Assembly (NCBI GenBank): GCA_027492035.1
Contig: JAOZFT010000032.1
Location: 1 to 64,000 of the forward strand
DNA length: 64,000 nt
Origin: Thermoproteota archaeon
GTDB taxonomy: Archaea; Korarchaeota; JAOZGF01; JAOZFZ01
Reading direction: 5' to 3'
Shown: in pieces, positions 22,431-51,587 of the stretch
Layout: the number at the start of each line of letters is the position of its first letter
Position numbering within the stretch: position 1 is the first letter of the stretch
Made by a program: the position numbers and the translations under genes
The notes under the pieces: model-generated
Databases searched by the model: none
What the model was told of the DNA's origin: nothing
Seen by the model: the letters and a program-made list of their open reading frames with translations, nothing else

Positions 22431-22444
22431 AAACGTGAAAGAGG

Positions 22445-23464: not shown

Positions 23465-23467
23465 AAG

Positions 23468-33609: not shown

Positions 33610-34884
33610 TTGGCTTCTTCAAGCATTAAGGAAGAGATAGAAAAGGCAAATCAGGAATCTGTTACAAGAATGATGGAGTCAGATCCACTGTGGGTCGATA
33701 TAGGATTTGCTAAGAAAGTAATTCCGGGAATGAAGGATTATAAACTGATACATGCAGGTCCCCCAATTGAATGGGAAAGAATGAGCGGACCCATGAGAGG
33801 GGCAATAATAGGTGCTATACTCTACGAAAAGTGGGCTGAAACACCTAAAGAAGCTGAGGAATTAGCTAAGTCAGGTAAAGTTAGTTTCGAACCTAACCAT
33901 CACTATAACGCAGTAGGTCCCATGAGCGGGGTTATTTCCCCAACTATGCCAGCAATTGTTCTGAAAGATAAAAAGTATGGGAACCAAACCTATTCTCTCC
34001 TTAATGAAGGAATAGGGAAAGTGCTCCGTTACGGCGGCTACGACAAGGAAGTAATAGATAGGTTAAACTGGATAAGAGACGTCTTAGGCCCAGTTTTAGA
34101 AGCTACAATAAAGGAAGTAAAGAAGGAGAAGGAAGGTGTAGCTTTAAAACCAATTATGTCGCAGGCTCTCCACATGGGTGACGAATGCCATAACAGACAT
34201 GTAGCTGCTACTTCTCTCTTCCTGAGGGAAATAATTCCTTACATGATGCAGACAAGGTTAGACAAGAAAGACCTAATTGATGCATACAACTTCATGAACA
34301 AAAATAACTTCACTTTCCTAGGGTTCGCTATGGCTGCAGCTAAGGCAATGACTTTAGCAGCTCACAATATTAAGTACAGTACAATAGTGACTGTCATGAG
34401 TAGGAACGGTACAGACATAGGTATTTGGGTTAGTGGTTTAGGTAATGAATGGTTCACTGCACCAGCTCCTGTACCTAAGGGTGTTTGGTTCCCAGGGTTC
34501 AGTGAGAAAGATGCTAACCCTGATCTAGGAGACAGCGCCATAATGGAAACAGCTGGTATAGGAGGATTTGCTATGGCGGCAGCACCCGCGATTGTAGCCT
34601 GGGTTGGAGGATCTGTTTCCTTCGCTGTTGAAAACACTAAAAAGATGCAAGAAATCTGTTACACCAAACATAAATACTTCACCATACCCTATCTTGAATT
34701 TGAAGGAACCCCTACAGGCGTAGATATAAGAAAGGTTGTGAAGACAGGGATAACTCCAACTATAAACACAGGCATTGCTCACAAGGAAGCAGGAATAGGT
34801 CAAGTGGGGGCAGGAATTGTGAAATTCCCAATGAAGATGTTTAAAGATGCGTTAAAAGCCTTTGCAGAAAAATATGGGTTATAA
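33610..34884 (+). CDS. DUF1116 protein (YlbE/AllG-, YahG-like; oxamate carbamoyltransferase-like subunit)
   Basis: 'HAGPPIEW', 'ALHMGDECHNR', 'NPDLGDSAIME' and 'INTGIAHK' motifs. Confidence 0.9.
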   Translation: MASSSIKEEIEKANQESVTRMMESDPLWVDIGFAKKVIPGMKDYKLIHAGPPIEWERMSGPMRGAIIGAILYEKWAETPKEAEELAKSGKVSFEPNHHYNAVGPMSGVISPTMPAIVLKDKKYGNQTYSLLNEGIGKVLRYGGYDKEVIDRLNWIRDVLGPVLEATIKEVKKEKEGVALKPIMSQALHMGDECHNRHVAATSLFLREIIPYMMQTRLDKKDLIDAYNFMNKNNFTFLGFAMAAAKAMTLAAHNIKYSTIVTVMSRNGTDIGIWVSGLGNEWFTAPAPVPKGVWFPGFSEKDANPDLGDSAIMETAGIGGFAMAAAPAIVAWVGGSVSFAVENTKKMQEICYTKHKYFTIPYLEFEGTPTGVDIRKVVKTGITPTINTGIAHKEAGIGQVGAGIVKFPMKMFKDALKAFAEKYGL

Positions 34885-34935
34885 AACCCATCCCTTATTC
34901 TTTTTTGCCTACAAAAATATGCGAAAGACCGATTT

Positions 34936-35898
34936 TTGATGCATTTAGAAAGTATTGGCGAAATAGCTTTAAATGAAATAACCAAGTCAGAAGGGGAAAG
35001 TAAATTAGGGACAGTGTTGAACGTTTTCAAATCCACAGCCTACATAAAAACAATAAGTAATGAATTAATTATATTAACCACCCTCCCCTTAAAATCCCCT
35101 ATAACCATGAACTTAAACTATAGAGGTAACCTTAAATCTGTTTTAAAACCTTTAGCAAAAATTAAAGTAAGGGACGGTAAACTTCAAACAAATGGTTTCA
35201 CAGCATCTTTAGTTGAAGCCAAAAAATATGTTGTTCAAAAACAATGCCTTAACGCTGATGTATTGTTTTCTATTCTGGAAAAAGATTTCCGAAACATCCT
35301 TTCTCTCTTAAACCTTGAACTTTATAATGCATCAATTACTTGGTTAAAAACTTATCAAGTAGTTACCGAAAAGTTTATGGAGTGTCTTAACGAAACTAAA
35401 AAATTGAAAAATAATTTACAGAACTCAATTTTAAATTTTTTAACTAAAATTATAGGGTTAGGGCCTGGTTTCACCCCTTCAGGGGATGACTTTGCGGCAG
35501 GTTTTCTTTTCATATTCAACACCTTTTCTCCCTTACTCAAACTTAAAAAAATAAAAATAAGCAATAGTATCCTCTTCTCCCACACAAATTGGGTTAGTGG
35601 AAAAATAGTAGATTATATACAGCGAGGTATTGCTGATGAAGTGCTTTACAAGGTTCTTTGCTGCTTAAAGAACCTTCAAAGGAATTCTTTAACAGATTCC
35701 TTCCTAGACCTGATTTCAAGGGGTCATACCACCGGAGTAGATCTTGCGATGGGGTTTCTTGCAGCTATTTCCTTTCTACAAGATACTGCCTATAACTCAA
35801 GTTTAACTTCTAAACTGATCCTTTTCTTGCTTGAAAATACAAAGCAAGTTTTGTTTGTTGGGGGAGATGGGAACCTAAGGAAATTACCTAAGAACTAA
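34936..35898 (+). CDS. DUF2877 protein (YlbF/AllH-like)
   Basis: 'GLGPGFTPSGDDF' and 'GHTTGVD' signature motifs; adjacent to DUF1116. Confidence 0.85.
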   Translation: MMHLESIGEIALNEITKSEGESKLGTVLNVFKSTAYIKTISNELIILTTLPLKSPITMNLNYRGNLKSVLKPLAKIKVRDGKLQTNGFTASLVEAKKYVVQKQCLNADVLFSILEKDFRNILSLLNLELYNASITWLKTYQVVTEKFMECLNETKKLKNNLQNSILNFLTKIIGLGPGFTPSGDDFAAGFLFIFNTFSPLLKLKKIKISNSILFSHTNWVSGKIVDYIQRGIADEVLYKVLCCLKNLQRNSLTDSFLDLISRGHTTGVDLAMGFLAAISFLQDTAYNSSLTSKLILFLLENTKQVLFVGGDGNLRKLPKN

Positions 35899-36074
35899 AA
35901 CATTTATCTTTTTTCAGGGAGGAAAAGTAAACATTTAAAAATGAAGCCTTTCCTGTGAAAGGGTATTACCCATACTCCCCTACAATTCCTTTAATGAATG
36001 TCTCAGGGGGAAAACATGTTAAAGAACTGTTTTTCTTATTCTGAAAAGGGTGAAGTAATGCAGGTGAAATTTAT

Positions 36075-38459
36075 TTGAGGCAGAAATATATAGGTAAAGC
36101 TTTACCTCAGCTTGATTCATTTCATAAAGTTACCGGTATAGCCAAATACACACACGACATCTCCCTTCCCGGTATGCTCCACGTTAAACTCGTAACTAGT
36201 ACGGAGCCACATGCAGAAATAATCAACATTGATGCAAGTGAAGCTTTAAAAATTCCTGGAGTGGTGGCAGTTCTTACAGGGAAAGATTTTCCTTACAGGC
36301 TTGGGATTTATGTAGGAGATAGAGATGTTTTGGCAATTGACAAAGTTAACTGGGTAGGTCATCCTGTAGCCGCTGTAGTTGCCGAAACAATGGAGGCAGC
36401 TGAGAAAGCCATTGACTTGGTTGAAGTAGATTATAAGCCTTTGAAACCTGTCTTCGACCCCTTTGAAGCTTTAAAGGAAGAAGCGCCGATTATCCACCCA
36501 AAACTTGGTGAATATAGACGTGCACCTGCTTTTACGCCGGTTCCAGGAACAAATATAGCTAATAAATTCACTTTAAGGAAGGGAGATGTGGAGAAAGGGT
36601 TTAAAGAAGCAGATGTGGTGGTTGAAAACAGATTTTACATGCCCTTCGTAAGTCACTGTTACATGGAGACACAATCCGTGGTTGCACATTACCACAAAGA
36701 CGGGACAATTGAAATATGGACGAGTGCACAGTCTCCATTCGCTGTAAGGAACCTAATGGGTTTGTCACTAGGTATCCCTATCGGTAAAATAATTATTTAT
36801 CAGCCCTTTGTGGGAGGAGGTTTCGGAGGTAAAGCAGGGTTACATTGGGAACCATTGGCAGCCTTAATTTCTAAAAAGGTAGGTTACAAACCTGTTAAGC
36901 TTAAACTTTCAAGGAAGGAACAGTTTACTTCAGCACCTGTAAGGGAAGGGTTCCATGCAGAAGTTAAAGTAGGGGCTAAAAGAAACGGTAAATTAACAGC
37001 TTTAAAAGCAAAATTCATTCTTGACAGTGGAGCATTCGCAGATTACACAGTAAATGTTTCTAGAGCTGCAGGTTACTCTGTGGGGGAAGTATATGACATT
37101 CCTAATGTGTACTGTGACTCCTTAGCTGTTTACACAAACAAAGTACCTACTACAGCTATGAGAGGTTTTGGTCACCCGGAAAGTGCGTGGGCTGTTGAAA
37201 GATCCATTGAAATGTTAGCTAACGAATTAAAAATGGATCCCCTAAAACTAAGGTTAATGAATGTTGTTAAAGCAGGCATATCAACAACCGTAACAGGTGA
37301 AAGACTTAGGGAAGATGCAGGTAATCCAGTCCAGTGTTTGGAGGCTGTAGCTAAAGCAATTAACTGGGGTAAAACCGAAGAAAAACCCAAGGAACCTTGG
37401 AAATTTATAGGTAAAGGGTTAGCTGTTTTCTCCAAGGGTCCAGCTCAACCTCCTAATGCTGCTTCTGCAGCTATTATAAAAATAAATGAGGATGTAACTG
37501 TCGATTTAATGGTTGGGACTGGAAACTTCGGACAAGGCACCCTAACAAGTCTGGCGCAAATTGTCGCTGATGAATTGGGGGTACCTGTAGAAAAAGTAAG
37601 AATAAGAACTATGCGTAGTACAGACACTGTAGCCTATACTTGGCAAACAGTAGGTAGTAGAGGCCTTTTCACTGATGGAAACGCTGTGCTTGAAGCACTA
37701 AAGGATGCTAAAAAACAAATAAAGGAAGTAGCTTCACAGGTCCTTAGAGTTAAGCCTGCAGATTTGGAAATAAAAGACGGAAAAGTTATGGTAAAGGGCA
37801 GACCCTGGGAAAATGTCCCTTTGAGTGACATAGTCATGGGATATACTTACCCCAATGGCAACTCTATAGGAGGCCCAATAATAGGTAGAGGTAAATACAT
37901 CTCCCCAATAAATACTTATTTAGATCCTGAAACAGGTCAAGGAATACCCACTATCTTCTACACCTTTGGTGCTGCTGCATGCAAAGTTGAAGTTGACGTC
38001 CTTACAGGTAAAGTGAAAGTGCTGGAAGCTGCCCAGGCTTTCGATCTAGGAAAAGCCATAAACCCATTACTTGTCCGTCAACAAGTTGAAGGGGGCTTTA
38101 TAATGGGTCTAAGTGTAGCGTTATTTGAAGAGATACAATTTGATGAAAGAGGGTGGGTTCTTAACCCTAACTTCTCAACTTACTGGGTTGCCAGGGCTGC
38201 AGATATTCCTTCAAAAATAGACACTATACCAGTGGAGAATCCTCAGAAAGATGCACCTTACGGCGCAAGAGGGATAGGGGAAGTAGTAATGTTAGGTGTC
38301 CCCCCTACAATAGCCAACGCTGTACAGAATGCAATAGGGGTAAACATCAATAATTTGCCTTTAACGCCTGAAAACGTTTGGAAAGCTATAAAGAAGCAGA
38401 GGCCTGAATTGGTAGAAGAAATAAAGAAGAAATTGGTTTCATGGAAATGGAAAGTTTAG
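36075..38459 (+). CDS. Xanthine dehydrogenase-family molybdopterin-binding large subunit
   Basis: 'VGGGFGGK', 'AMRGFGHPE', 'GQG', 'TVGSRG' and 'GARGIGE' (catalytic Glu). Lacks the CODH AYRCSFR/AYRGAGR loop. Confidence 0.93.
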   Translation: MRQKYIGKALPQLDSFHKVTGIAKYTHDISLPGMLHVKLVTSTEPHAEIINIDASEALKIPGVVAVLTGKDFPYRLGIYVGDRDVLAIDKVNWVGHPVAAVVAETMEAAEKAIDLVEVDYKPLKPVFDPFEALKEEAPIIHPKLGEYRRAPAFTPVPGTNIANKFTLRKGDVEKGFKEADVVVENRFYMPFVSHCYMETQSVVAHYHKDGTIEIWTSAQSPFAVRNLMGLSLGIPIGKIIIYQPFVGGGFGGKAGLHWEPLAALISKKVGYKPVKLKLSRKEQFTSAPVREGFHAEVKVGAKRNGKLTALKAKFILDSGAFADYTVNVSRAAGYSVGEVYDIPNVYCDSLAVYTNKVPTTAMRGFGHPESAWAVERSIEMLANELKMDPLKLRLMNVVKAGISTTVTGERLREDAGNPVQCLEAVAKAINWGKTEEKPKEPWKFIGKGLAVFSKGPAQPPNAASAAIIKINEDVTVDLMVGTGNFGQGTLTSLAQIVADELGVPVEKVRIRTMRSTDTVAYTWQTVGSRGLFTDGNAVLEALKDAKKQIKEVASQVLRVKPADLEIKDGKVMVKGRPWENVPLSDIVMGYTYPNGNSIGGPIIGRGKYISPINTYLDPETGQGIPTIFYTFGAAACKVEVDVLTGKVKVLEAAQAFDLGKAINPLLVRQQVEGGFIMGLSVALFEEIQFDERGWVLNPNFSTYWVARAADIPSKIDTIPVENPQKDAPYGARGIGEVVMLGVPPTIANAVQNAIGVNINNLPLTPENVWKAIKKQRPELVEEIKKKLVSWKWKV

Positions 38460-38471
38460 AGGTGAAGAAAA

Positions 38472-39353
38472 ATGTCTTTTGGTGCACCCTATATTTCAAT
38501 ACCTGAATTCCAGTATCTTAAACCTAAAACTTTGAAAGAAGCGCTTGAAACACTTTCAAAATATGAAGATGAAGCTAAAGTGTTAGCTGGGGGTGTAGGC
38601 CTTTTAAATCTCATGAAAGAAAGACTAGTGGAGCCTGAATATGTAGTTGATATTAAAGGGATTCCTGAACTTAGGAAGGTAACATATGAAGAGGGGAAAG
38701 GGTTGACTATAGGGGCAACAGTGACTTTAAGTGAACTGGAAAACAATGAAATAGTGGAGAGGAAGTACACAGCCTTACATGAAGCAATAAAGGTTTTAAG
38801 TGACCCAGTTTTAAGAAATAGGTCAACATTGGTTGGAAATGTCTGTGAAGCCTTTGCTTGGATGGATAGTCTATCTCCTCTACTTGTTTTCGACGCTGAA
38901 TTAAAAGCTTTAAGCGTAAACGGTGAAAGAATGATAAAAGCCAAAGATTTTATTATCGGCCTAGCTGAAACAGCCTTGGAACCAAATGAACTGGTTGCAT
39001 CCATTTTTCTGCCAGAACCACCTAAAAACTCGGCAAGTAAATTTATTAAATTCAGGTCCAGAAGCGAATTCAGTGTGATCAACGTGGCTTCTCTCTTGGC
39101 AAACAGGGACAATCCTCCAGAAAGAATCTTGAGATTAGCTTATGGAGGAGCTACGCCTTCTCCCGTTAGGGTATTTGCAGTAGAAAAAGTTTTTAAGCAA
39201 CAGAAACCCTTAAATGAATTACTTAAGGAAGCTTTAGATGTTGTTTTCAAAGAAGTTTCCCCAATGGAAGACATGCATGCTTCTAAGGAATACAGGGAAC
39301 ATTTAATGGAAACTTTAACCATTAAAATTATTAGGGAACTCTGGGGTGAATGA
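38472..39353 (+). CDS. Xanthine dehydrogenase-family FAD subunit (CoxM-like)
   Basis: 'LAGG', 'IGATVTL', 'LRNRSTLVGNV' and 'ASKEYR' motifs. Confidence 0.92.
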   Translation: MSFGAPYISIPEFQYLKPKTLKEALETLSKYEDEAKVLAGGVGLLNLMKERLVEPEYVVDIKGIPELRKVTYEEGKGLTIGATVTLSELENNEIVERKYTALHEAIKVLSDPVLRNRSTLVGNVCEAFAWMDSLSPLLVFDAELKALSVNGERMIKAKDFIIGLAETALEPNELVASIFLPEPPKNSASKFIKFRSRSEFSVINVASLLANRDNPPERILRLAYGGATPSPVRVFAVEKVFKQQKPLNELLKEALDVVFKEVSPMEDMHASKEYREHLMETLTIKIIRELWGE

Positions 39354-39826
39354 AAATGCCAAGAAAAATCACCTTCACCGTGAATGGTGTGAAAAAACAG
39401 GTGGAGGTTAAGGATAATGAGTTGTTGGCTGATGTTTTAAGAGATAAGCTTCAACTTACAGGTGTAAAGCAGGCATGTTGGAGAGGGGAATGTGGACTTT
39501 GCACAGTACTCCTTAACGGTAAACCTGTTAAATCATGCCTTATCTTAGCTGTTGAAGCAAACGGGGCTGAAATAGTTACCAGTGAAGGATTAATGGAGGG
39601 TGACAAACTATCCCATCTACAAAAGTCATTTGTTGAAAACGGAGCTCTTCAATGTGGTTTCTGCACACCAGCTTTCACATTGGTAACTCATTATTTACTG
39701 ACTCAAAAACCTGACGCGTCAGAAGAAGAAATAAGGGAATATATTAGTGGCTTAATTTGTAGGTGTGGAACCTATAATGAAATAGTGAAAGCTGTGAAAC
39801 AGGCTTCTCAATACTACAAAAAATAA
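39350..39826 (+). CDS. Xanthine dehydrogenase-family 2x[2Fe-2S] subunit (CoxS-like)
   Basis: 'CWRGECGLCTV', 'QCGFCTP' and 'CRC' motifs. Confidence 0.95.
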   Translation: MKMPRKITFTVNGVKKQVEVKDNELLADVLRDKLQLTGVKQACWRGECGLCTVLLNGKPVKSCLILAVEANGAEIVTSEGLMEGDKLSHLQKSFVENGALQCGFCTPAFTLVTHYLLTQKPDASEEEIREYISGLICRCGTYNEIVKAVKQASQYYKK

Positions 39827-39858
39827 GGAAATGAATTTCTTTTCCTCTTTTTCTTTCT

Positions 39859-40044
39859 TTAAAGGATTTTTGAAAGGATGTCCTTGTATTCTTTTTCTAG
39901 TTTAGGGGGCGGCTGCCAAGTGACGTGTACAGCCTTTATTTCTTGGTCAAGCAAGGCATTATAAAATATTTCTATGCCTATGTTTATTACTTTTAATTCA
40001 GATTTAAATAACTCCATCACTTTCTCACTCATTCCTTTTTTCAC
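39859..40044 (-). CDS. Small stand-alone FdrA-associated domain protein
   Basis: 'LKVINIGIEIFYNALLDQEIKAVHVTWQPP' resembles the C-terminal module of E. coli FdrA and the N-terminal module of YahG; 2 bp downstream of fdrA. Confidence 0.8.
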   Translation of the reverse strand: MKKGMSEKVMELFKSELKVINIGIEIFYNALLDQEIKAVHVTWQPPPKLEKEYKDILSKIL

Positions 40045-40046
40045 CT

Positions 40047-41669
40047 CTATTGTGGAAACAGGAAAGATTCATATGTTCTTTCTAATGTATCCTCTTTCAT
40101 TCTCCCCTTCGATGCCACTGCTGAAGCTAATATAGCCATTAAAGCATTAGTTGGAAGAACTGTAACACCTAAACTTTCCAGTTTCTTTGTTTGGAGCGAA
40201 AGGTTTTGGGGGTCTCTATCCGTCCCGCATACATGGGCTAAAATAGCTAAGTACCTTCCGTTTTTTTCAGCTGTTTCTTTTGCTTTCCTTATAGCTTCTG
40301 TATGGGCTTCAGCTGGGTCTGAATGTGAACCGTAACCTAGAACGAAATCAAGGAGTATAACAGCAACTTCTGGGTCCTTTGCCTCTTCTATCAACCTTAA
40401 ATTCCTAATCGTCGGGTCAATCATCGGATGAGCTCTGCCTATGGTGAACTCTTCCTCCCCTAAATCAACTACTGTGTGTTGAAAACTTTTGTAAGGGTTT
40501 TTTAATCCAAGCCTAGGTTCTAGGGGTGCATTGGAGTAAACGTCTCCCAAAGTTTCTTTTAAGATAATAAGTGACTCATACGTTAATGTTCCCCCTGTAA
40601 AAAGTCCCCTTATGTATTTCTGTTTTTCTTCAAATTGAGAATAAAGCTTTTCACTTTTCCTTAACAACTCCTCTGCAGGTATTGAAATCTTCTTTTCTGC
40701 CTCTTTGAAAAGTTTTTCGTCAAGGAGTCTTACCGACTCTAAAGCTGCTGCATGTAACGTTCTTGTTTGGACAAGTCTTTCCTTAAGTTGATTGGGTACT
40801 TCAAAAACTTTCCCGCCCATGAAACAGGTAACATATTTCTTTTTTGTGTTGTATGTTATATAATCAAGTATTTTTTTCTGAACTTCGGGATCTGGTGGTT
40901 TAGCCACTAGAGTTACTACTTTTGTTTCGGTATCTTTCTCTAAAGCCTTTATTGACTCTAAAGCCATTATTCCCCCCACTTTCTTTTTAACATCTCCTCC
41001 ACCTATTCCTATTCCCTGTGAAACACCTGAACCGGCTACAGTTATTAAAACACTTACCTCCTGTAAACCTGTTCCAGCTGCTGCAACTATGCCTATTGGT
41101 CCCTTATTTACTACGTTAGCGAAAGCTATTGCTTTGTTATTTATTATTGAGGTGCCTGCAGCAGCCCCCATTACAAGGAGACCCCTCTCCTTTGCGTATT
41201 CCTTTATTTCAAGTTCATCCTCAATGGGTACATGGTCACTGAATAAGTGCACGTGAATTCCTCTATCTAAAAGTTTCAGCGTTATTTCTTTAGCGTATTC
41301 CCCTGGGACGGAAACGATTGCTAAATTAGCATCAGGTAATGCCTCTAATGCAGTTTCTAAGCTGTAAAAGTATTGTCCAGCTTTTGGAGGCTTAGTTAGC
41401 ATTTTTTCAATTGTTTCAACAGCCTTATTTATTATTTCTTCAGTTGATGCGGAAACAGCTATTACCATGTCGCTTTCTCCAGCTATTTTCCCTTCCTCAA
41501 CCAATAAACCTAGTTTTTCCAGTATTTCCTTGTTTGTTTTTGTACCCATAACTACAGCTGCATCCATTACTCCCTCTATTTTTTTAGCTTGTTCTGACAA
41601 ATGGAGGAGCTGTAAAGAGTCCCTATAAAAATTCTTCTTCACCACATTTTTTACAGGCAAATTTATCAC
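40047..41669 (-). CDS. fdrA: FdrA (AllF/YahF)-type acyl-CoA-synthetase-like protein
   Basis: 'YRDSLQL', 'VMGTKTNK', 'SVPGEYA', 'GTGLQE', 'GRAHPMIDP' and 'DFVLGYGSH' motifs. Confidence 0.93.
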   Translation of the reverse strand: MINLPVKNVVKKNFYRDSLQLLHLSEQAKKIEGVMDAAVVMGTKTNKEILEKLGLLVEEGKIAGESDMVIAVSASTEEIINKAVETIEKMLTKPPKAGQYFYSLETALEALPDANLAIVSVPGEYAKEITLKLLDRGIHVHLFSDHVPIEDELEIKEYAKERGLLVMGAAAGTSIINNKAIAFANVVNKGPIGIVAAAGTGLQEVSVLITVAGSGVSQGIGIGGGDVKKKVGGIMALESIKALEKDTETKVVTLVAKPPDPEVQKKILDYITYNTKKKYVTCFMGGKVFEVPNQLKERLVQTRTLHAAALESVRLLDEKLFKEAEKKISIPAEELLRKSEKLYSQFEEKQKYIRGLFTGGTLTYESLIILKETLGDVYSNAPLEPRLGLKNPYKSFQHTVVDLGEEEFTIGRAHPMIDPTIRNLRLIEEAKDPEVAVILLDFVLGYGSHSDPAEAHTEAIRKAKETAEKNGRYLAILAHVCGTDRDPQNLSLQTKKLESLGVTVLPTNALMAILASAVASKGRMKEDTLERTYESFLFPQ

Positions 41670-41715
41670 CTAAATTTTTAATTCTATTTCTCCTTCTTTG
41701 TTTCCAAGAGTTTAC

Positions 41716-42675: not shown

Positions 42676-42807
42676 GTTATCAACCTTTGCAAAAGCGTTT
42701 TATCCTTATTTAGAAAGGATGTGAAATAAAGAATAAGGGAAAGCAGTAGTGCTTTTAAAAAATTTTTGCTTAATTTACCATTTTTCCAGCGTAGAATGTA
42801 AAATTCT

Positions 42808-44892: not shown

Positions 44893-45627
44893 TTAAATTT
44901 CTACTTTTTCCGAAATTGTAAAGTTCTTGGCCTTTTTCAACATGTCTTCAGGGACAGGTCTCTCCCCTATAAAGTAGGGGAACCTCTTTTTTATGAAACT
45001 GTCCCAGTCTTCTTTGGTTATATAAAAGACTCTTGCTCCTCCGAGTTCATGCTGATATTCAGGCCATGGCTTTTGTTTTTTACCCCATTTTAGTGCAAAT
45101 ACACGTATCCCTATGTAAGACTCGAAAGTCGCCCACCACTCCTTCACTCCAAGGTAGTCGAAAGCGTATTCAACTTTTGCAGCATATAGTGACGGACCTA
45201 ATCCTACTCCCCTTACAAATGACATTGTATGTAAACTATATGCTATGTCGTTGCTATATAACCTAGCATTCACTATTCCTGCTAATTTCCCGTCTATTGT
45301 CCCCAATAGTAAGTAATGATCTTTTATTCTGTACCTGTACCATGCAAGGATCTCTGCGTAAGTTCTCACTGCGACTATGTCGTAGAAATCTTTCTCTACA
45401 TCGAAATAGGGCCTTATTGCCTTTAAAACTTTTGGTACATCTTCTCTAGTTGCTTGGTGGACAACCATTTTTGTTCCATCTCTCAAAGTAAGTACTTTCG
45501 GTGGGTAAGGAGTGTTTTGCAGTACTGGTGACTCCGGAGGCCTTAAGTTTGGTTCTAAATCCTCAACTTTAACAGTATATTCAGTTGCTGAAACAGGACA
45601 AGGCGGTTTTAAAGCCACGTTCATCAC
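44893..45627 (-). CDS. GNAT-fold protein of unknown specificity
   Basis: Acetyl-CoA-binding motif A-like 'VRGVGLGPSLY', preceded by 'GTIDGKLAG' and followed by 'EYAFDYLGVK'. Confidence 0.6.
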   Translation of the reverse strand: MMNVALKPPCPVSATEYTVKVEDLEPNLRPPESPVLQNTPYPPKVLTLRDGTKMVVHQATREDVPKVLKAIRPYFDVEKDFYDIVAVRTYAEILAWYRYRIKDHYLLLGTIDGKLAGIVNARLYSNDIAYSLHTMSFVRGVGLGPSLYAAKVEYAFDYLGVKEWWATFESYIGIRVFALKWGKKQKPWPEYQHELGGARVFYITKEDWDSFIKKRFPYFIGERPVPEDMLKKAKNFTISEKVEI

Positions 45628-45764
45628 TCTCCTTTTTATTTTATTTAAAAAGCTTAAAGCTTACTTTTCTAACCTATTAGGAAATAAGTATGCATAAGTT
45701 TGTGGGTTCAAATTTAAATATTTCTAATTTTTCATTTATCTTTCGATTCTTCCTTTATGTTTTT

Positions 45765-46211
45765 TTAAGTTGCTTCTAATGATTCCTTCACGCATTCAAA
45801 CATTTTCTTAATCACTTTATCCATGGCTCCTTGGATCATTCCCTTTGCTAATCCCCCAAGTAAGCCACTTGTTTCTGCAGTTGCTTTCCAAGCAAAGGTT
45901 GTAGTGTTTGGTGATTCCTCCTCCAATTTTATCTCTACCTCTGAATTAAATGAACTGTTCACTCCTTTACCTTTTAAAGCAAGTCTTGCGAAGTAGTCAT
46001 CGGGTTTTTCCTCCAAAATTGCCACGTTTATATTGAAGGTTCCCTTAATAAACCCAACTCCAGCCTTGACTTTAGCTGTGAAAGATCTTTCTCCTGTCTT
46101 TTCGTATTCTTTTAAGCCTGGAACACATTTAACTATTTCATCTGTATTGGAAACAAACTCCCAAACTTTGTTCCGAGGCGCATTTATTAAGAACTTACCT
46201 TCAAACTCCAT
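45765..46211 (-). CDS. coxG: CoxG/SRPBCC (START-like) family protein
   Basis: 'MEFEGKFLINAPRNKVWEF...KCVPG' and 'VGFIKGTF'. Likely ATG start at 46211. Confidence 0.87.
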   Translation of the reverse strand: MEFEGKFLINAPRNKVWEFVSNTDEIVKCVPGLKEYEKTGERSFTAKVKAGVGFIKGTFNINVAILEEKPDDYFARLALKGKGVNSSFNSEVEIKLEEESPNTTTFAWKATAETSGLLGGLAKGMIQGAMDKVIKKMFECVKESLEAT

Positions 46212-46363
46212 ACGAAAGTCACCCTCTACAGGAAAATTCAAATAGTAAAAGGTTACTTTCGCTTGCTCTTTTTAAATGTATCCTTCATTTTCTTGCTCTG
46301 AAAACTTTCTTAAGGCTTTTTCTAAGTTTTTCTCATGTTTTATATCAAATATAAAATTTAATG

Positions 46364-46377
46364 AGCCTACGTAGGCT
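46364..46377. promoter_or_regulatory. Perfect 14-bp palindrome AGCCTACGTAGGCT in the divergent coxG/BMP intergenic region
   Basis: The palindrome is read directly and is GC-richer than its surroundings; the operator role is inferred. Confidence 0.35.
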
Positions 46378-46643
46378 GCAAATTAATGCTTATCCCTGTC
46401 TCTTCTTGAACAAAAGCCAATTCCCTTTGAAATTTATTCAAGTTTATTTATTGGGTTCTTAATAAAATAGGAAACACATCGGCTGAAAAAAGATAAAGTG
46501 AGGTTCTGAAACATTAAAATTTAAATATAAAGTGAAGGATAAGTATGAGTTATTCCCTTACGGAGGCATTTCCCGTCCAAAAAAGGGAAAAAATCTATGG
46601 AATCACTTAAGAATTTGTTTTTTAAAAATACGAGGGGTAAAAT

Positions 46644-47786
46644 GTGATTGAGAATAAAATAAAGGTTGGATCTGCAGTCTTTATCTTTGTATTGGCAATA
46701 GTTCTAGCTGGATGCGTTGGTCAACCACCATCTCCAACTCCTACACCTACACCAACAGCAACTCCTACACCTACACCAACTGTTTCACCAACAGCAACTC
46801 CGACTCCTAAACATCCAGAAATAAAAATTGCTCTCATCTTACCGGGTTCAATAACTGACAGAGGATGGGATCAAGATCCTTACGAGGGTTTCATGCAAGC
46901 TAAGAAAGATTTCGGAATTACTGCTGAATACACTGAAGGGACAGACATCACAGGTACCGCTGAAGACTACCCAAGGATAATAAGAGATTATTGTAGAAGA
47001 GGGTTCCAATTAATCATTGCACATGGATTCCAGTACAGAGACGCTGTAAAAGAAGCTGCTAAGGATTATCCGAATGTTTGGTTCACTTTCGATGGTTCAG
47101 CTGAAGACATAACTAGCAATACTGCTCCGTGGATATCCCTAGGCCATGAACCAGCTTATTTAGCGGGCATATTAGCTGCAAAAATGACAAAATCAAAAAT
47201 TGTAGGCGTCTATAATGGAATGCCTGTACCTATTGAAGTCCCATGCATGGAGGCTTTCAAGGCAGGTGTACACTCAGTTGACCCTAATATAAAAATATTG
47301 TCAACTTACATAGGTGTTTGGCATGACGTACAGAAGGGGTATGACACTGCTTCCTCAATGATTGATGCAGGAGCGGATGTAATCTATGGTATCGGAGACG
47401 GAATCAATGTCGGAGGCCAGCAGGCATGTAAAGAGAAAGGAGTTTGGTTCATTGGAGGAACAGGTGGTATACATCAAGTAGAAGGAGCCCCTGATATAAC
47501 CTTGGCCTCTGTCTCATGGGGACTCGACAGAGTAATTTATCACTTAGTTAAGATCTTTGTTGAAAACGGTAAATTAGAACCTAAATTCTACCAATACTCA
47601 ATGCACACTACTATAACCGAGAAAGGCAAACGCGTAGGACCATACTTTGTCTGGAACATGGATTTAGTAAATAAAGGAGTTATTCCCAAAGACGTCTACA
47701 ACCTCATAGAATCAACTAAAGAAGATATAATGAAAGGATTAGTCCAAGTTCCACTTGTCTTCACAGCCCCTGAGGCGCAGGGCTAA
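46644..47786 (+). CDS. BMP/PnrA family ABC substrate-binding lipoprotein (nucleoside-type)
   Basis: Lipobox 'LAGC', Pro/Thr linker, and 'DRGWDQ', 'IAHGFQY', 'AYLAGILAA' and 'GADVIY' motifs. Confidence 0.9.
   Translation: MIENKIKVGSAVFIFVLAIVLAGCVGQPPSPTPTPTPTATPTPTPTVSPTATPTPKHPEIKIALILPGSITDRGWDQDPYEGFMQAKKDFGITAEYTEGTDITGTAEDYPRIIRDYCRRGFQLIIAHGFQYRDAVKEAAKDYPNVWFTFDGSAEDITSNTAPWISLGHEPAYLAGILAAKMTKSKIVGVYNGMPVPIEVPCMEAFKAGVHSVDPNIKILSTYIGVWHDVQKGYDTASSMIDAGADVIYGIGDGINVGGQQACKEKGVWFIGGTGGIHQVEGAPDITLASVSWGLDRVIYHLVKIFVENGKLEPKFYQYSMHTTITEKGKRVGPYFVWNMDLVNKGVIPKDVYNLIESTKEDIMKGLVQVPLVFTAPEAQG
46725..46808 (+). repeat. Pro/Thr low-complexity linker repeat (PSPTPTPTPTATPTPTPTVSPTATPTP)
   Basis: Repeated CCTACACCTACACCAAC and CCAACAGCAACTCC units within the BMP gene. 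Confidence 0.85.
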
Positions 47787-47841
47787 CCCCTTCCCCTTTT
47801 TTCTTTATTTTTTAAATATAACGCAATGGAGGTCTTTTGCT

Positions 47842-48900
47842 GTGTACTTGGGAGGTGGACAGCGTTACATACTCTGGAGAGTTATTTCGGTCATAATTTC
47901 ACTTGCCATAGCTTTAGGTATAGCTTCCATTTTTATTGTAGCAGTGGGTGCTAACCCTTTAGTTGCTTTTTATGCTATATATGATGGCTCATTAAGCAAT
48001 CCAGAAGGTATTTCTGAAACCTTAATTAAAGCAACTCCTTTAATTTTTACTTCTTTAGCTTGTGCGGTGGCTTTTAAGTCTAACATGTTGAACATAGGTG
48101 CTGAAGGACAAATGTATATAGGACAAGCAGTAGCTGCAGTTGCAGCCTTAACAATGCCTTTAAATTTACCTATTTACCTTTTTATTCCCTATCTTATAGC
48201 AGTAAGTTTTATTGGCGGCGCAGCATGGGCAGCTATACCAGGATATTTAAAGTTGAAATTTGGGATAAGTGAAGTAGTAACTACTATGTTAATGAACTGG
48301 ATCCCTATTTATTTAGTGGATTACTTGGTTTTTGGCCCGTTTTATGAAACAGAGCATATTCATCCTCAAACAAATCCTATCCCTGAGGCAGCTAGGCTTC
48401 CGAGGCTTTTTCCAAGGTACAGAGTTCACGCAGGCATTTTCATAGCTGTAGCTACGGCTGTTATTCTTTATTTCTTTTTGTGGAAGACTCATAAAGGGTT
48501 TGAGTTTAGAGCTACTGGAGCTAGTGTAACTGGGGCCAGGGCCATGGGTATTAACGTGAATAAGAGGCTGATGCAAGCTATGATAATAAGTGGGGGAATT
48601 GCTGGTTTAGCAGGTTTCTCAATTGTTTCAGGCACTTACCATAAGCTCAAACTTGGAACTACAGCCATCCTCGGACATGGTTATGCAGGTATACTAGTAG
48701 CCTTAGTAGCCAATAATCACCCCTTAGGAACCGCTGTTGCAGCGTTTATTTTTGCAGTCCTAATCATTGGCTCTGAAACCATGCAACGTGCAGCAGGAGT
48801 TCCTTTCCCGGTAATAAACATAGTAGAAGCGTTGCTAGTTTTAGCTGTTTTGTTAAGTGGGAGAATGTTTGAGTACTTGTCAAAGAAGGTGAAACTTTGA
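47842..48900 (+). CDS. Nucleoside ABC transporter permease 1 (CUT2/NupB-like)
   Basis: 'NIGAEGQ', 'SEVVTTMLMN' and 'GYAGILVALVANNHP' motifs. Likely GTG start at 47842 after GGAGGT (ORF track gives 47755). Confidence 0.9.
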   Translation: MYLGGGQRYILWRVISVIISLAIALGIASIFIVAVGANPLVAFYAIYDGSLSNPEGISETLIKATPLIFTSLACAVAFKSNMLNIGAEGQMYIGQAVAAVAALTMPLNLPIYLFIPYLIAVSFIGGAAWAAIPGYLKLKFGISEVVTTMLMNWIPIYLVDYLVFGPFYETEHIHPQTNPIPEAARLPRLFPRYRVHAGIFIAVATAVILYFFLWKTHKGFEFRATGASVTGARAMGINVNKRLMQAMIISGGIAGLAGFSIVSGTYHKLKLGTTAILGHGYAGILVALVANNHPLGTAVAAFIFAVLIIGSETMQRAAGVPFPVINIVEALLVLAVLLSGRMFEYLSKKVKL

Positions 48901-48901
48901 A

Positions 48902-49864
48902 ATGTTTCCATTAAGTGAAACAATTGCTAGTATAGTTGGGAGAGGAATAATGTTCGGTGCAGCTTTACTGCTAGCTTCCCTGGGAGAAATATTTGCCCAA
49001 AAATCAGGTTTCATGAATTTAGCCATGGAAGGATTAATGACGCTTGCAGCCTCCGTCTCTTACCAAGTTATGTTTTTAACAGGTAATCCAGCTTTAGCTC
49101 TTGCAGCAGCAATGGCTAGCAGTATGGCCGTCTCGTTCATAAGTGTTTATCTCAACCAAAGATTTTACCTTGACCAAGTAGTTGCAGGCATGGCACTCTA
49201 CATCTTCTCTTTCGGCCTAGGTGTTTATATCCATAGGGTTGTTTCTGGAGGAGTTACAGGCGTAAAATTTATTGAAGTACTTAAACCTATAAATATACCC
49301 TTACTATCTAATATTCCAATCCTAGGACCTATTCTTTTCAAACAAAACGTACTAGTCTACACGGCAATTATTTTGTCTTTTATTGCTTACATAGTTTTAT
49401 TCAGGACCAGTTGGGGCTTAACAGTTAGGGCGGTTGGGGAGAACCCTAAGGCTGCTGACAATGCCGGTATAAACGTTTATAGGACAAGGTACTTAGCGAC
49501 TCTACTTAGCGGGGCTGGTGCAGGTTTAGGTGGGGCATACATTGTCTTAGCAGTGCTAGGCAATTTCCAAGAACTTGTAGTTAGCGGAAGAGGATGGATA
49601 ACCATTGCAATGGTTATTTTTTCGCAATGGAACCCCCTTTACGCAATAATAGGTTCCTTCTTTTTTGGTACCATGGAGTCGGTGGCGAAATTCATGGAAA
49701 TAACTAGAGAAATATCTATTACCGGAGGTATACCCTACCAGTTTTTCTGGATGATACCTTACATAGCCAGTATTTTAGCTTTAGTGGTAGCCTTTAAGAA
49801 AGCAGCTCTACCCTCTGCTTTGTTTAAAGTTTATAAAAGAGAAGAAGCTATAAGTGAAGTATAG
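48902..49864 (+). CDS. Nucleoside ABC transporter permease 2 (NupC-like)
   Basis: 'KSGFMNLAMEG', 'RAVGENPKAADNAGINV' and 'GRGW' motifs. Confidence 0.9.
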   Translation: MFPLSETIASIVGRGIMFGAALLLASLGEIFAQKSGFMNLAMEGLMTLAASVSYQVMFLTGNPALALAAAMASSMAVSFISVYLNQRFYLDQVVAGMALYIFSFGLGVYIHRVVSGGVTGVKFIEVLKPINIPLLSNIPILGPILFKQNVLVYTAIILSFIAYIVLFRTSWGLTVRAVGENPKAADNAGINVYRTRYLATLLSGAGAGLGGAYIVLAVLGNFQELVVSGRGWITIAMVIFSQWNPLYAIIGSFFFGTMESVAKFMEITREISITGGIPYQFFWMIPYIASILALVVAFKKAALPSALFKVYKREEAISEV

Positions 49865-49997
49865 GATCCTCAGAGAGGCGATATTGAAATGGTTCCTTTT
49901 TTCTTCGGTACCTTTATTAATTGGAAAAAGGTTAAGTGTATTTTTGGTTTTTCGAAAATTTCAATATGTAAAAAATTTTTTGATGGGGGAGCCATTA

Positions 49998-51587
49998 ATG
50001 GGAAAACAATACACAAAGGGAGAAATCAGGGAAAAATTGACTAAATTAGAGATAGGAACCACCGTTCTGGAAATGAAAAACATAACTAAAACATTTCCAG
50101 GTGTTGTAGCGGATGACCATGTTAATTTCGAATTGAAGAAAGGTGAAATTCATGGCTTACTTGGGGAAAATGGAGCAGGTAAAACAGTTCTTATGAGTGT
50201 TTTATATGGTCTCTACAAGCCTGATGAAGGCGAGATATGGTTAGCCGGTGAAAAAGTTGACATAAAATCCCCTAAAGACGCTATAGAGCTGGGTATTTCA
50301 ATGGTTCATCAAAGGTTTGCGTTAGTTAAAAACATTACTGCTTTAGAGAACATAATTCTTGGAACTCAATCCTCCAAGAAATTCTTTCTTGATGAGAAAG
50401 AGGCCGAGGAAAAAGTAAAGAAACTTTCAGAAAAATTCGGGTTGGAAGTGAAACTAAACTCTTTAGTAATGGATTTATCAATGGGTGAAAGGCAGAAAGT
50501 TGAAATTTTAAAAGCTCTCTACCGTGGCTCAAACATTTTAATACTTGATGAACCCACAACCATGATTACCCCTCAAGAAATCGATTCATTATTTGAAACA
50601 TTAAGGAAAATGGTTAAGGAAGGGCTATCCATCGTGTTTATCTCCCACAAAATACCTGTTGTCCTAAGAGTAACTGACAGAATAACTATTTTAAGAAACG
50701 GGAGAGTGATAACTACTGTAAAAACAAGTGAAACAAATGAAAGGGACCTAGCAGTGAAAATGGTTGGGAGGGAAGTTCTTTACAGGCTTCCAAAAGTTAA
50801 AAGAGAAAGAGGTGAAAGAATTTTGCACATAGAAAATCTTTGGGCCCCTGGCGAAGAGGAAGGAGTTCCTGTTCTAAAAAGCATTTCCTTCTCCGTCCAT
50901 AAAGGTGAAATTCTAGGAATAGCGGGAGTAGCAGGTAACGGGCAGAAAGAACTGGTTGAGTGTATCTTGGGGCTTAGGAAAGTAAGTAAAGGGAAAATTT
51001 TCCTAAACGGGAAAGATTACACTAACAAATTTACAAGAGAAATATATGAAGCAGGAGTTGCTTGGATACCTGACGAAAAAGACAGGGGAGCAATTCTTGG
51101 TTTATCAGTTGCTGAAAATTTAGTTATGAAAAAATTCTATAAACCACCCTTCTCTAAAGGATTAATGTATAATGAAAAGGAATCCTTAAGCTTCGCTGAA
51201 AAAATTGTAAAGGAGTACGGTGTCAAAACAGCGGGAGTTAAGGCTCCAGTTAGAACACTTTCAGGGGGGAACATCCAAAGATTAATTCTAGCACGTGAAT
51301 TTTCAGCAAACCCTAAACTATTGATAGCTTTCAACCCAACCCAAGGCTTAGATGTCAACGCTACGGAATTCACTAGAAGAAAAATACTTGAATTGAGGGA
51401 AAAGGGATCAGGGGTGCTTCTTGTTTCAATGGACCTGGACGAAGTTATGATGTTAAGTGACAGAATAGCGGTAATGTATAAGGGGGAGATAGTAGGTATA
51501 ATTGATGCAGCTAAAGCTGAAAGATACGAATTAGGTTTAATGATGGCTGGATCCAAACGTTTAGAATCAAGCAACTGGGCCAGCTAA
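49998..51587 (+). CDS. Nucleoside ABC transporter ATPase (two ABC domains, NupA-like)
   Basis: 'GENGAGKT', 'LDEPT', 'GVAGNGQ' and 'LSGGNIQR' motifs. Likely ATG start at 49998 (ORF track gives 49854). Confidence 0.93.
   Translation: MGKQYTKGEIREKLTKLEIGTTVLEMKNITKTFPGVVADDHVNFELKKGEIHGLLGENGAGKTVLMSVLYGLYKPDEGEIWLAGEKVDIKSPKDAIELGISMVHQRFALVKNITALENIILGTQSSKKFFLDEKEAEEKVKKLSEKFGLEVKLNSLVMDLSMGERQKVEILKALYRGSNILILDEPTTMITPQEIDSLFETLRKMVKEGLSIVFISHKIPVVLRVTDRITILRNGRVITTVKTSETNERDLAVKMVGREVLYRLPKVKRERGERILHIENLWAPGEEEGVPVLKSISFSVHKGEILGIAGVAGNGQKELVECILGLRKVSKGKIFLNGKDYTNKFTREIYEAGVAWIPDEKDRGAILGLSVAENLVMKKFYKPPFSKGLMYNEKESLSFAEKIVKEYGVKTAGVKAPVRTLSGGNIQRLILAREFSANPKLLIAFNPTQGLDVNATEFTRRKILELREKGSGVLLVSMDLDEVMMLSDRIAVMYKGEIVGIIDAAKAERYELGLMMAGSKRLESSNWAS

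Follow-up and report, generated by a model that had tools for sequence, protein, structure and literature searches.

The 64,000-nucleotide stretch analysed here, hereafter the window (positions 1 to 64,000 of contig JAOZFT010000032.1 of a Thermoproteota archaeon of the Korarchaeota, assembly GCA_027492035.1), carries between positions 33610 and 51587 an island in which the genes for an AllFGH-type carbamoyltransferase and a carbamate kinase stand together with those for a molybdenum hydroxylase of the xanthine dehydrogenase (XDH)/CoxL family. The window is contig C31 of the genome, named G000 in this work, which comprises 1.87 Mb in 42 contigs and is 93% complete. The same association is present in other archaea and in bacteria, and it probably represents a conserved module for nucleobase degradation that differs from the allantoin pathway. 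From the gene context, a pyrimidine may be the substrate, an assignment in which our confidence falls somewhat short of even. The best reading at present, advanced with a similar reserve, is that the oxidative pyrimidine pathway runs here in a phosphorolytic form, in which uracil or thymine would be converted via barbiturate and ureidomalonate into carbamoyl phosphate and a malonyl unit.

The evidence for such a module comes first from the neighbourhood of AllG in other genomes. Related loci were compared with the window by tblastn, and of the 577 AllG loci that were confirmed, the best 80 were used, each with a flank of up to 10 kb per side; all their open reading frames (ORFs) were clustered, the recurrent families were named, and the loci (designated L and a number) were taken as archaeal or bacterial as labelled in their records. 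Among these 80 loci, FdrA was found in 69, AllH in 49, the large subunit of the hydroxylase (XdhL) and a PF04199 cyclase-family hydrolase in 33 each, the medium subunit (XdhM) and carbamate kinase in 30 each, the small subunit (XdhS) in 29, a GNAT-fold protein of 244 residues (GNAT244) in 20, an NCS2 permease in 17, a carboxyltransferase in 14, and parts of a Bmp ABC transporter in 13-14. When only the 33 loci with full flanks (at least 19 kb each) are considered, XdhL lies within 10 kb of AllG in 20 of them (9 of the 12 from archaea and 11 of the 21 from bacteria), and the cyclase-family hydrolase is present in 16. The linkage between XDH and AllG exceeds chance; the linked loci span Thermoproteota- and Nitrososphaerota-labelled archaea, Chloroflexota, Bacillota and Pseudomonadota, and the gene order varies by lineage while the gene set stays. 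A first-pass annotation, made by a model from the sequence alone, had made its proposal of a catabolic island depend on XDH-like genes being kept beside DUF1116 (AllG) and FdrA, and these counts show that they are kept, in both domains of life.

The closest AllG relatives of the window belong to archaeal metagenome-assembled genomes. In a genome of the same family (G001), a thiolase-AllH-AllG arrangement, the three hydroxylase genes and the 61-aa ORF with FdrA were found, and a genome of the same order (G002) has the arrangement epimerase-methylmalonyl-CoA mutase-AllH-AllG; AllG was detected in 4 of the 41 genomes searched of the window's GTDB phylum, for which few genomes exist, too few for a co-occurrence profile. 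In the bacterium Anaerospora hongkongensis (L044) the genes form one uninterrupted operon with the order permease-PucR-AllH-FdrA-AllG-cyclase-XdhM-XdhS-XdhL. A tree of the 80 AllG sequences, built with a quick method and supported by SH-like approximate likelihood ratio test (SH-aLRT) values only, groups the window with archaeal sequences in a clade of 25-27 rows (SH-aLRT 97 and 93), and nearly all the rows of this clade with enough flank carry an XDH, cyclase or GNAT gene. E. coli YahG is located inside a 31-row bacterial clade, together with the XDH- and cyclase-containing clusters of Chloroflexota and Bacillota and with Bacillota loci that have an AtzD-family gene and carbamate kinase; E. 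coli AllG is on a long branch outside both clades.

The full-flank loci with XDH also differ in their companions from those without it. The cyclase-family hydrolase is present in 13/20 of the former and 3/13 of the latter, whereas an AtzD-family ring opener (0/20 versus 5/13) and a family of 521-aa proteins (0/20 versus 7/13) were found only in the latter; since the loci are kin to each other, Fisher values for these contrasts overstate their significance. Two further contexts of AllFGH and carbamate kinase can be recognised. One includes one or two copies of the 521-aa protein, which has no Pfam or NCBIfam match, often accompanied by a gene of the isochorismatase family and by a GntR regulator (L042, L043, L047, L053, L054, L057, L058, L061, L062, L065, L069 and L033). 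In the other, an AtzD-family ring opener is located beside AllH-FdrA-AllG-carbamate kinase in six loci (L032, L033, L037, L050, L058 and L064), where a pbuX-type permease and PucR also occur and L037 has a CodA-like amidohydrolase in addition.

In the window, AllG, AllH and the large, medium and small (L/M/S) subunits of the hydroxylase are encoded on the plus strand and converge, across a gap of 33 bp, with a minus-strand operon whose order as transcribed is the GNAT-fold protein, CoA-transferase A and B, carbamate kinase, FdrA and the 61-aa ORF. These genes, and those for CoxG and the Bmp-type ABC transporter, had all been listed by the first-pass annotation, and each was recovered at its position from the ORF listing and the family scans, the GNAT-fold protein from a structural model (Table 1).

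The three ORFs of the hydroxylase have the architecture of the XDH/CoxL family, with molybdenum-cofactor-binding, FAD-binding and two [2Fe-2S] domains according to Pfam. The large subunit remains below all the NCBIfam equivalog cut-offs (522 bits versus 780 for XdhA, 437 versus 784 for pucD and 347 versus 850 for xdhB); the best NCBIfam matches of the large and FAD subunits are the E. coli-type XdhA and XdhB, the second also below its cut-off (192 versus 287). Among enzymes of solved structure, CoxL and 4-hydroxybenzoyl-CoA reductase are nearest to the large subunit, and the Cys loop of CO dehydrogenase is not found in it, given that AYRCSFR in 1n5w aligns with AMRGFGH. The large-subunit motifs in the window are GGGFGGKAG, AMRGFGHPE and GIGE. 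In every AllG-linked large subunit of the window type an Ala follows GGGFGGK, and the window has the Arg of AMRGFG and the Glu of GIGE. Bovine XDH has a substrate-binding Glu after the Gly-rich motif, together with an Arg and a catalytic Glu; the Ala presumably stands where xanthine-oxidising enzymes have the substrate-binding Glu, a correspondence read from the motifs with no XDH sequence in the alignment.

When the 33 large-subunit ORFs with 700 aa or more, which come from 30 loci, were typed, the signature of the window type (GGGFG[GCS]KAG, [FMY]RGFG and G.GE) was present in 26 of the 30 loci and in both domains of life; a second, CoxL-form-II-like large subunit was the only one in four loci (L024, L025, L027 and L029), and both types occur in L026 and L028. 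In these last two, which are Caldarchaeales loci, the CoxL-form-II-like gene (GGGFGPKIM and VRGAGRP; L026:3431-6545 and L028:3406-6542) lies directly beside the GNAT244 gene. The AllG-linked large subunits are 42-64% identical to XdhL of the window (42-45% for the bacterial ones), as compared with 36-37% for the paralogues encoded in its own genome. Together with the shared active-site signature, these values argue against the risk, raised in the first-pass annotation, that the enzyme is a generic aldehyde oxidoreductase.

FdrA, AllG and AllH each score above the cut-off of their families, so that membership in the AllFGH type is clear for the three; the AllG body matches PDB 3clq with an E value of 2e-125, and FdrA has a near-invariant His414. 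In comparison with E. coli, the window AllG is 45% identical to AllG and 44% to YahG, AllH is 26% identical to AllH and 25% to YahE, FdrA is 41% identical to YahF and 35% to AllF, and the carbamate kinase is 44% identical to YahI and 41% to AllK. These values, and the position of E. coli AllG outside the window's clade, give no orthology to the All rather than to the Yah proteins. The window AllG does not have the N-terminal segment present in the long bacterial forms of about 465-510 aa. In blastp comparisons, the homology of the 61-aa ORF covers the initial 45-60 residues of more than 40 long AllG ORFs, and the ORF also matches the N-terminus of E. coli YahG; it is kept after FdrA in archaeal loci with 41-68% identity, and in L024 its homologue is fused to the C-terminus of FdrA (L024:7372-9105). 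By homology, the 61-aa ORF is identified as a detached N-terminal piece of AllG, a segment that appears to have moved between subunits, as it is free in the window, ends FdrA in L024 and begins AllG in most bacteria. The peptide is probably a fourth subunit of the carbamoyltransferase, and the archaeal enzyme a four-piece complex, which agrees with the four proteins suspected earlier when the ORF was noted only as a small domain.

The carbamate kinase of the window is the single one above the cut-off in the whole genome. The genome holds three genes of the ornithine/aspartate transcarbamylase (OTC/ATC) family, and CarB was not found in its 93%-complete sequence (best score 70 bits, cut-off 1027). 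Because of these three circumstances, the carbamoyl phosphate produced by the island may feed biosynthesis, or the kinase may work anabolically; thus the substrate-level ATP proposed in the first-pass annotation stands as one possible fate of carbamoyl phosphate, but not as the only one.

The island is not the allantoin pathway of E. coli. Family scans of the window covered 40 ORFs between 17.8 and 62.5 kb, leaving aside the ORFs at 1-17.7 kb and some small ones, and, as had been noticed before, they contained no allantoinase, AllC, AllD or uricase. The search was extended to the genome, with AllE outside its scope, and again no canonical allantoin pathway was found: at 93% completeness there is no uricase and no 2-oxo-4-hydroxy-4-carboxy-5-ureidoimidazoline (OHCU) decarboxylase, the best AllC score is 25 bits versus a cut-off of 598, and the one Ldh_2-family dehydrogenase, on contig C20, is below both AllD cut-offs. 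The best score with the allantoinase model is 346 versus 358, and it belongs to a protein above the dihydroorotase cut-off, encoded next to an aspartate transcarbamylase (ATCase)-family gene. This is one of nine Amidohydro_1 proteins in the genome; the others are four TRZ/ATZ/SsnA-like proteins below the cut-offs, one adenine deaminase, one FwdA, one CodA-like protein, and one with weak Xaa-Pro dipeptidase and imidazolonepropionase matches far below the cut-off. A true allantoinase or hydantoinase among the nine was rejected on the basis of the family scores and the ATCase-family neighbour.

With respect to ring opening, the genome has a single PF04199 cyclase-family hydrolase (C14:3354-4142), which is 46-48% identical to the in-cluster archaeal ones. 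The barbiturase/AtzD model PF09663 gave no match in the genome; the positive control was also silent in every genome, so this result is uninformative. The CodA-like amidohydrolase (G000 C10:6794-8026) is 54% identical to one located beside AllG in L019, and may belong to the same pathway.

Two known reactions frame the proposed pathway. AllFGH turns oxalurate, an N-acylurea, into carbamoyl phosphate and oxamate, according to PMC11326118; in the oxidative pyrimidine pathway, as outlined in PMC3758960, a pyrimidine is converted to barbiturate, then to 3-oxo-3-ureidopropanoate, and finally to malonate and urea. If the last hydrolysis were replaced by phosphorolysis, the AllFGH-like enzyme, the carbamate kinase and the CoA-level enzymes would be jointly accounted for. 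Several neighbours agree with this idea. The permease of L044 passes the cut-off of the UraA uracil-permease equivalog (701 versus 477), and those of L051 and L075 have uracil permease as their best match, below the cut-off. The carboxyltransferase present in 14 loci is accompanied by OAD_beta (in 5 loci), a biotin carrier and OAD_gamma, a set that by family membership is recognised as parts of a Na+-pumping decarboxylase of the (methyl)malonyl-CoA type, and AllG-cluster genes have a methylmalonyl-CoA mutase, an epimerase or both as neighbours in the window as well as in L006 and L095. The clusters have also recruited CoA-transferases from two unrelated families, family I in the window and family III in four other loci. 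CodA-like amidohydrolases in 5 loci, an NCS1 permease in L018 and nitrilase-superfamily hydrolases in some clusters were also found. Finally, the AtzD-family ring openers located beside AllFGH and carbamate kinase in six loci fit AllFGH-type enzymes that act on ring-opened N-acylureas.

According to this scheme, nucleosides would enter through the Bmp-type ABC transporter and be split by a nucleoside hydrolase, and the L/M/S enzyme, with CoxG, would hydroxylate uracil or thymine to barbiturate or 5-methylbarbiturate. A ring-opening amidohydrolase, in the relatives the in-cluster cyclase and here the copy on C14, would then produce ureidomalonate or ureidomethylmalonate, N-acylureas like oxalurate. 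The four-piece enzyme formed by FdrA, the 61-aa peptide, AllG and AllH would cleave the N-acylurea with phosphate, so that carbamoyl phosphate and an amide of the malonyl or methylmalonyl unit are formed; from the former, carbamate kinase would make ATP, unless carbamoyl phosphate is directed to biosynthesis. The resulting C3 or C4 acid could be transferred onto CoA by the CoA-transferase, perhaps with the GNAT-fold protein, and the CoA ester would be drained by methylmalonyl-CoA epimerase and mutase here, and by the biotin-dependent decarboxylase of the Na+-pump type in the relatives. The first-pass proposal of a nucleobase route different from that of E. coli, with a molybdenum hydroxylase and a carbamoyl step, is supported, with the correction that the context points to pyrimidines rather than purines. 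A bolder version, which we regard as possible but rather doubtful, is that of an energy-conserving oxidative pyrimidine fermentation common to thermophilic archaea, Chloroflexota and some Bacillota, in which L/M/S would be the uracil/thymine dehydrogenase, the cyclase would replace barbiturase, and the GNAT-fold enzyme would take part in the handling of CoA esters.

Several observations weigh against the phosphorolytic pyrimidine scheme, all of whose chemical steps are inferred from gene context. Carbamate kinase is rarer where XDH is present, as it lies within 10 kb of AllG in 5/20 XDH-linked loci and in 10/13 of the full-flank loci without XDH. Of the seven permeases tested from loci of the XDH/cyclase type, one passes the uracil cut-off, and four (L005, L009, L021 and L035) are best matched by the xanthine-permease subfamily, all far below its cut-off. 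The AtzD-family ring opener of L050 scores as a cyanuric acid amidohydrolase (537 versus 360) and not as a barbiturase. The scans of the window gave no ring-opening hydrolase, and the only cyclase gene of the genome is located beside alanyl-tRNA synthetase on C14. The family I CoA-transferase of the window was found in none of the other 80 loci. Phosphorolysis would leave an amide that needs an amidase, and none was assigned in the window; the scheme gives no role to the thiolase/DUF35 pair and does not account for the GNAT-fold protein. The mutase, epimerase, thiolase and decarboxylase genes could represent unrelated central metabolism encoded nearby.

Among the alternatives, the one that survives best, although we consider it unlikely, is a new purine route, in which L/M/S would oxidise hypoxanthine, xanthine or another purine, the cyclase-family hydrolase would open the pyrimidine ring to give a ureido-imidazole, and the AllFGH-like enzyme would free carbamoyl phosphate from it. 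This route would explain why the large and FAD subunits find their best matches in XdhA and XdhB, the presence of PucR-family regulators in 9 loci and the four permeases of the xanthine subfamily; the genome has an adenine deaminase, and the nucleoside hydrolase and the Bmp transporter would serve purines equally well. However, the XdhA and XdhB scores are well below their cut-offs, all the AllG-linked members have Ala at the position presumably held by Glu in xanthine oxidisers, and among the permeases of XDH-type operons only one, a uracil permease, exceeds its equivalog cut-off. Moreover, the CoA-transferases and the (methyl)malonyl-CoA decarboxylase and mutase have no obvious role in purine breakdown, and a ureido-imidazole is not an N-acylurea, the sole substrate type shown for AllFGH. 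The permeases of the AtzD-type loci L033, L037 and L064 are also best matched by the pbuX xanthine-permease subfamily, those of L037 and L064 above the cut-off and that of L033 below it.

Less probable still is another ureide heterocycle, such as a hydantoin, parabanate, an alloxan-like compound or one related to cyanurate and biuret, which would be oxidised, opened to an N-acylurea and phosphorolysed. The varied contexts of AllFGH-like genes (with cyanuric-acid-hydrolase-family, isochorismatase-family or 521-aa-family genes) speak for it, as does the fact that cyclase-family enzymes include isatin hydrolase, an opener of a cyclic keto-amide; PMC12625717 also reports allFGHK beside biuH/trtA in nitrifiers. 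Nevertheless, nucleobase or nucleoside transporters of three families (NCS2, NCS1 and Bmp ABC) accompany the XDH-type clusters, one of them being a UraA equivalog, and the (methyl)malonyl-CoA enzymes fit best with the C4-C5-C6 fragment of a pyrimidine.

It seems slightly more improbable that the genes have unrelated functions and are simply adjacent, with L/M/S as a generic aldehyde or CO-type oxidoreductase and carbamate kinase as an anabolic source of carbamoyl phosphate. Carbamate-kinase-like enzymes are said to play this anabolic role in some hyperthermophilic archaea, and here a sole carbamate kinase coexists with three OTC/ATC-family genes that need carbamoyl phosphate and with no CarB above the cut-off in the genome; in addition, CoxL and 4-hydroxybenzoyl-CoA reductase are the solved enzymes nearest to the large subunit, and the kinase is loosely linked in most XDH-type loci. 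On the other side, XDH and AllG stay linked in two domains and several phyla although the gene order is rearranged, L044 is unbroken from permease to XdhL, and the AllG-linked large subunits share a signature without the Cys-containing loop of the aligned CO dehydrogenase; besides, an anabolic kinase leaves FdrA, AllG and AllH without explanation. An ordinary E. coli-type oxalurate branch, with a normal xanthine dehydrogenase leading purines via urate and allantoin to oxalurate, and AllFGH with carbamate kinase to finish it, has the least chance of all: AllG, AllH, FdrA and the kinase pass their family cut-offs and an Ldh_2-family dehydrogenase exists on C20, but the latter is below the AllD cut-offs, uricase, OHCU decarboxylase and AllC were not found in the 93%-complete genome, the sole allantoinase-like protein resembles a dihydroorotase, the AllG of the window resembles E. 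coli AllG and YahG about equally, its FdrA has more identity with YahF than with AllF, and E. coli AllG lies outside the window's clade.

The known system that most resembles the island is E. coli AllFGH with AllK (PMC11326118); it includes the same three families plus carbamate kinase, all above their cut-offs here, and phosphorolysis of an N-acylurea would be expected of the island as well. It differs in that no upstream pathway of the allECD type was found in the genome (AllE was not part of the search), the island's AllG is split into the 61-aa peptide and the body, and the genes are arranged in two convergent operons around the hydroxylase. The E. coli cluster YahEFG-YahI-YahJ is comparable, since FdrA and the kinase of the island are closer to YahF and YahI, and the 61-aa peptide matches the N-terminus of YahG; YahJ is annotated as an amidohydrolase family protein, and 5 AllG loci have CodA-like amidohydrolases. 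As annotated, the yah cluster is without a molybdenum hydroxylase, GNAT, cyclase or CoA-transferase gene, unlike the island and its relatives, and no paper on its function was found.

The oxidative pyrimidine pathway, with uracil/thymine dehydrogenase, barbiturase and ureidomalonase, follows the order that is proposed for the island, i.e., oxidation to barbiturate, opening to an N-acylurea and release of the malonyl unit; as described in PMC3758960, it ends hydrolytically in urea and malonate without carbamoyl phosphate, whereas the last step of the island would be phosphorolytic and coupled to carbamate kinase and CoA. Its ring opener belongs to the AtzD family, in contrast with the cyclase family proposed for the island, and no paper naming a gene for its uracil/thymine dehydrogenase was found. 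The 2,8-dioxopurine or reductive uric acid pathway (XdhD-YgfM, SsnA, HyuA, YgeW and YqeA; bioRxiv 10.1101/2025.04.24.650524 and PMC12507026) also combines an XDH-family enzyme, a carbamoyltransferase and a carbamate kinase that provides ATP. Its transcarbamylase, YgeW, has an OTC/ATC fold instead of the FdrA/DUF1116/DUF2877 composition observed here, and its C3 product is diaminopropionate rather than the malonyl unit proposed for the island; the accessible text of the two papers contains no occurrence of FdrA, DUF1116, oxamate or cyclase, and this pathway was rejected as the identity of the cluster. In nitrifiers, allFGHK genes beside biuH/trtA and bmpA-nupABC bring together AllFGH-like genes, carbamate kinase and a Bmp nucleoside transporter in archaea, and were read as serving ureide use; the accessible part of that work (PMC12625717) describes no molybdenum hydroxylase, cyclase hydrolase or GNAT protein, and this context matches the isochorismatase-family neighbourhood and not that of the window. 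Literature searches, which did not reach most subscription journals or any supplements, gave no published cluster of XDH and AllFGH. The enzyme families are all known; no published description was found of the way they are combined, of an AllG in two pieces, of the narrow GNAT family or of the pathway proposed here.

AllFGH was identified in 2024, and its one known substrate is oxalurate. The cluster suggests that the family acts as a general N-acylurea phosphorylase in several ring-degradation pathways, and it offers gene candidates for the dehydrogenase of the oxidative pyrimidine pathway. If the scheme is correct, nucleic-acid bases would be a source of ATP, and possibly of ion-gradient energy, for hyperthermophile-like archaea and Chloroflexota; the scheme would also give a testable function class to the E. 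coli yah genes, and it provides a starting hypothesis for these genes and for the narrow GNAT-fold family. The same operon is present in cultured bacteria, i.e., Anaerospora hongkongensis (L044) and Fuchsiella alkaliacetigena (L030), which makes the idea directly testable.

Table 1. Genes of the island and of its surroundings in the window, with the evidence for each assignment
Feature	Coordinates	Strand	Evidence
AllG/DUF1116 body, 424 aa	33610-34884	+	PF06545, 296 bits (cut-off 27)
AllH/DUF2877 subunit	34936-35898	+	PF11392, 66 bits (cut-off 25)
Molybdenum hydroxylase large subunit, XDH/CoxL family	36075-38459	+	Ald_Xan_dh_C, MoCoBD_1, MoCoBD_2
FAD-binding medium subunit	38472-39353	+	FAD_binding_5, CO_deh_flav_C
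[2Fe-2S] small subunit	39350-39826	+	Fer2, Fer2_2
61-aa ORF, AllG/YahG N-terminal homologue	39859-40044	-	blastp
FdrA/AllF-type subunit, succinyl-CoA-synthetase-alpha-like domains	40047-41669	-	NF004760, 447 bits (cut-off 433); CoA_binding, Ligase_CoA
Carbamate kinase	41716-42675	-	TIGR00746 (arcC equivalog), 419 bits (cut-off 358)
Family I CoA-transferase, A and B	A 43596-44609; B 42808-43599	-	PF01144, 131 and 123 bits
GNAT-fold protein, 244 aa (GNAT244)	44893-45627	-	AlphaFold2 model and Foldseek
CoxG-type accessory protein	45765-46241	-	PF06240, 94 bits
Bmp/PnrA-type ABC importer, four genes (binding protein, two permeases, double ATPase)	46644-51587	+	PF02608, PF02653 (twice), PF00005
ThiS/MoaD-like small protein	54479-54778	-	BLAST cluster with a 9-locus family, whose L004 member matches PF02597 (ThiS)
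Inosine-uridine-preferring nucleoside hydrolase	22445-23464	+	PF01156, 320 bits
B12-binding small subunit of acyl-CoA mutase	25469-25888	+	PF02310
MeaB GTPase	25910-26851	+	PF03308
Acyl-CoA mutase large subunit	26894-28591	+	PF01642, 774 bits
ATP:corrinoid adenosyltransferase	28999-29580	+	PF02572, 234 bits
DUF35 OB-fold/Zn-ribbon protein, thiolase partner	29626-29976	-	PDB 6esq_E (Pfam DUF35), E 8e-18
Thiolase-like protein	29980-31215	-	Thiolase_N, Thiolase_C_1
Second methylmalonyl-CoA-mutase-type large subunit	31369-33054	+	PF01642, 780 bits
Glyoxalase-fold protein, putative methylmalonyl-CoA epimerase	33071-33469	+	Glyoxalase_4, 83 bits

The first gene of the minus-strand operon encodes a protein with no Pfam or NCBIfam match at E values up to 0.1. 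Its AlphaFold2 model, obtained with 19 homologues, has a mean predicted local distance difference test (pLDDT) score of 87.8 and a predicted TM-score (pTM) of 0.84, and the top Foldseek matches in the PDB are PatZ, PA3270, SpeG and the GNAT domain of PAT (probability 1.0, TM-score to the target 0.5-0.69); according to the model, the protein has a GNAT fold. The atlas clusters of this protein carry PF00583 on just 19-27% of their members, and the 19 aligned GNAT244 members share 28 invariant residues, including a HELGG motif. A search with the GNAT244 profile among 1.84 billion representatives retrieved 227 proteins when E was allowed to reach 0.001 and 52 with the limit set at 1e-30; many of these sequences are fragments. 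In the AllG loci, GNAT244 never co-occurs with the AtzD-family or the 521-aa-family genes. An unrelated CoA-transferase, of family III, is located at the place equivalent to that of the window's CoA-transferase in L030, L035, L051 and L071.

The island probably starts further upstream than AllG and includes the thiolase/DUF35 pair and the methylmalonyl-CoA mutase and epimerase genes. The window thiolase is 57-62% identical to the thiolases located beside the GNAT gene in five Chloroflexota loci (L038, L052, L055, L063 and L080), and 33-43% identical to its own paralogues in the genome; the DUF35 ORF clusters with ORFs that adjoin the thiolase in 5 Chloroflexota AllG loci. Sequence comparison suggests that the thiolase travels with the AllG cluster. 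Homologues of the second mutase large subunit adjoin AllG/AllH or carbamate kinase in L006 and L095. The glyoxalase-fold gene precedes AllG by 140 bp on the plus strand, and its homologue is beside methylmalonyl-CoA mutase-AllH-AllG in L095; from its fold and its neighbours, the protein is read as a putative methylmalonyl-CoA epimerase. The two mutase-type large subunits share one B12-binding small subunit, MeaB, the adenosyltransferase and the glyoxalase-fold protein, and one of these large subunits may belong to an acyl-CoA mutase of another kind.

Two other genes mentioned in the first-pass annotation were also recovered in the window. The nucleoside hydrolase gene was confirmed by its family match, and the gene for a MoaD-like or SAMP-type small protein was tentatively identified by its BLAST clustering with a family that matches ThiS. 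The former is located inside an operon of the energy-coupling factor (ECF) transporter type (20880-25188) that encodes, in this order, a 201-aa ORF without a Pfam match, a CbiQ T-component, the hydrolase and two ABC ATPases. This composition suggests an importer for a nucleoside-like compound; the hydrolase is peripheral to the island and is a possible source of free bases. Beside the Bmp-type transporter, a 566-aa protein without a Pfam match (51710-53410) is a paralogue, with 29-37% identity, of a 1061-aa PKD-domain protein (59269-62454) and of copies encoded on contig C38 (G000 C38:61969-63504); these are probably surface proteins without relation to the island. A search for sequencing runs that cover 33610-43600 gave none. 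At gathering thresholds, Rfam gave no match in the window; in seven bacterial loci of the XDH type, its sole match was a cobalamin riboswitch (L044:206-390, 108 bits), located upstream of the uracil-permease/AllFGH/XDH locus of Anaerospora, about 4 kb from the operon.

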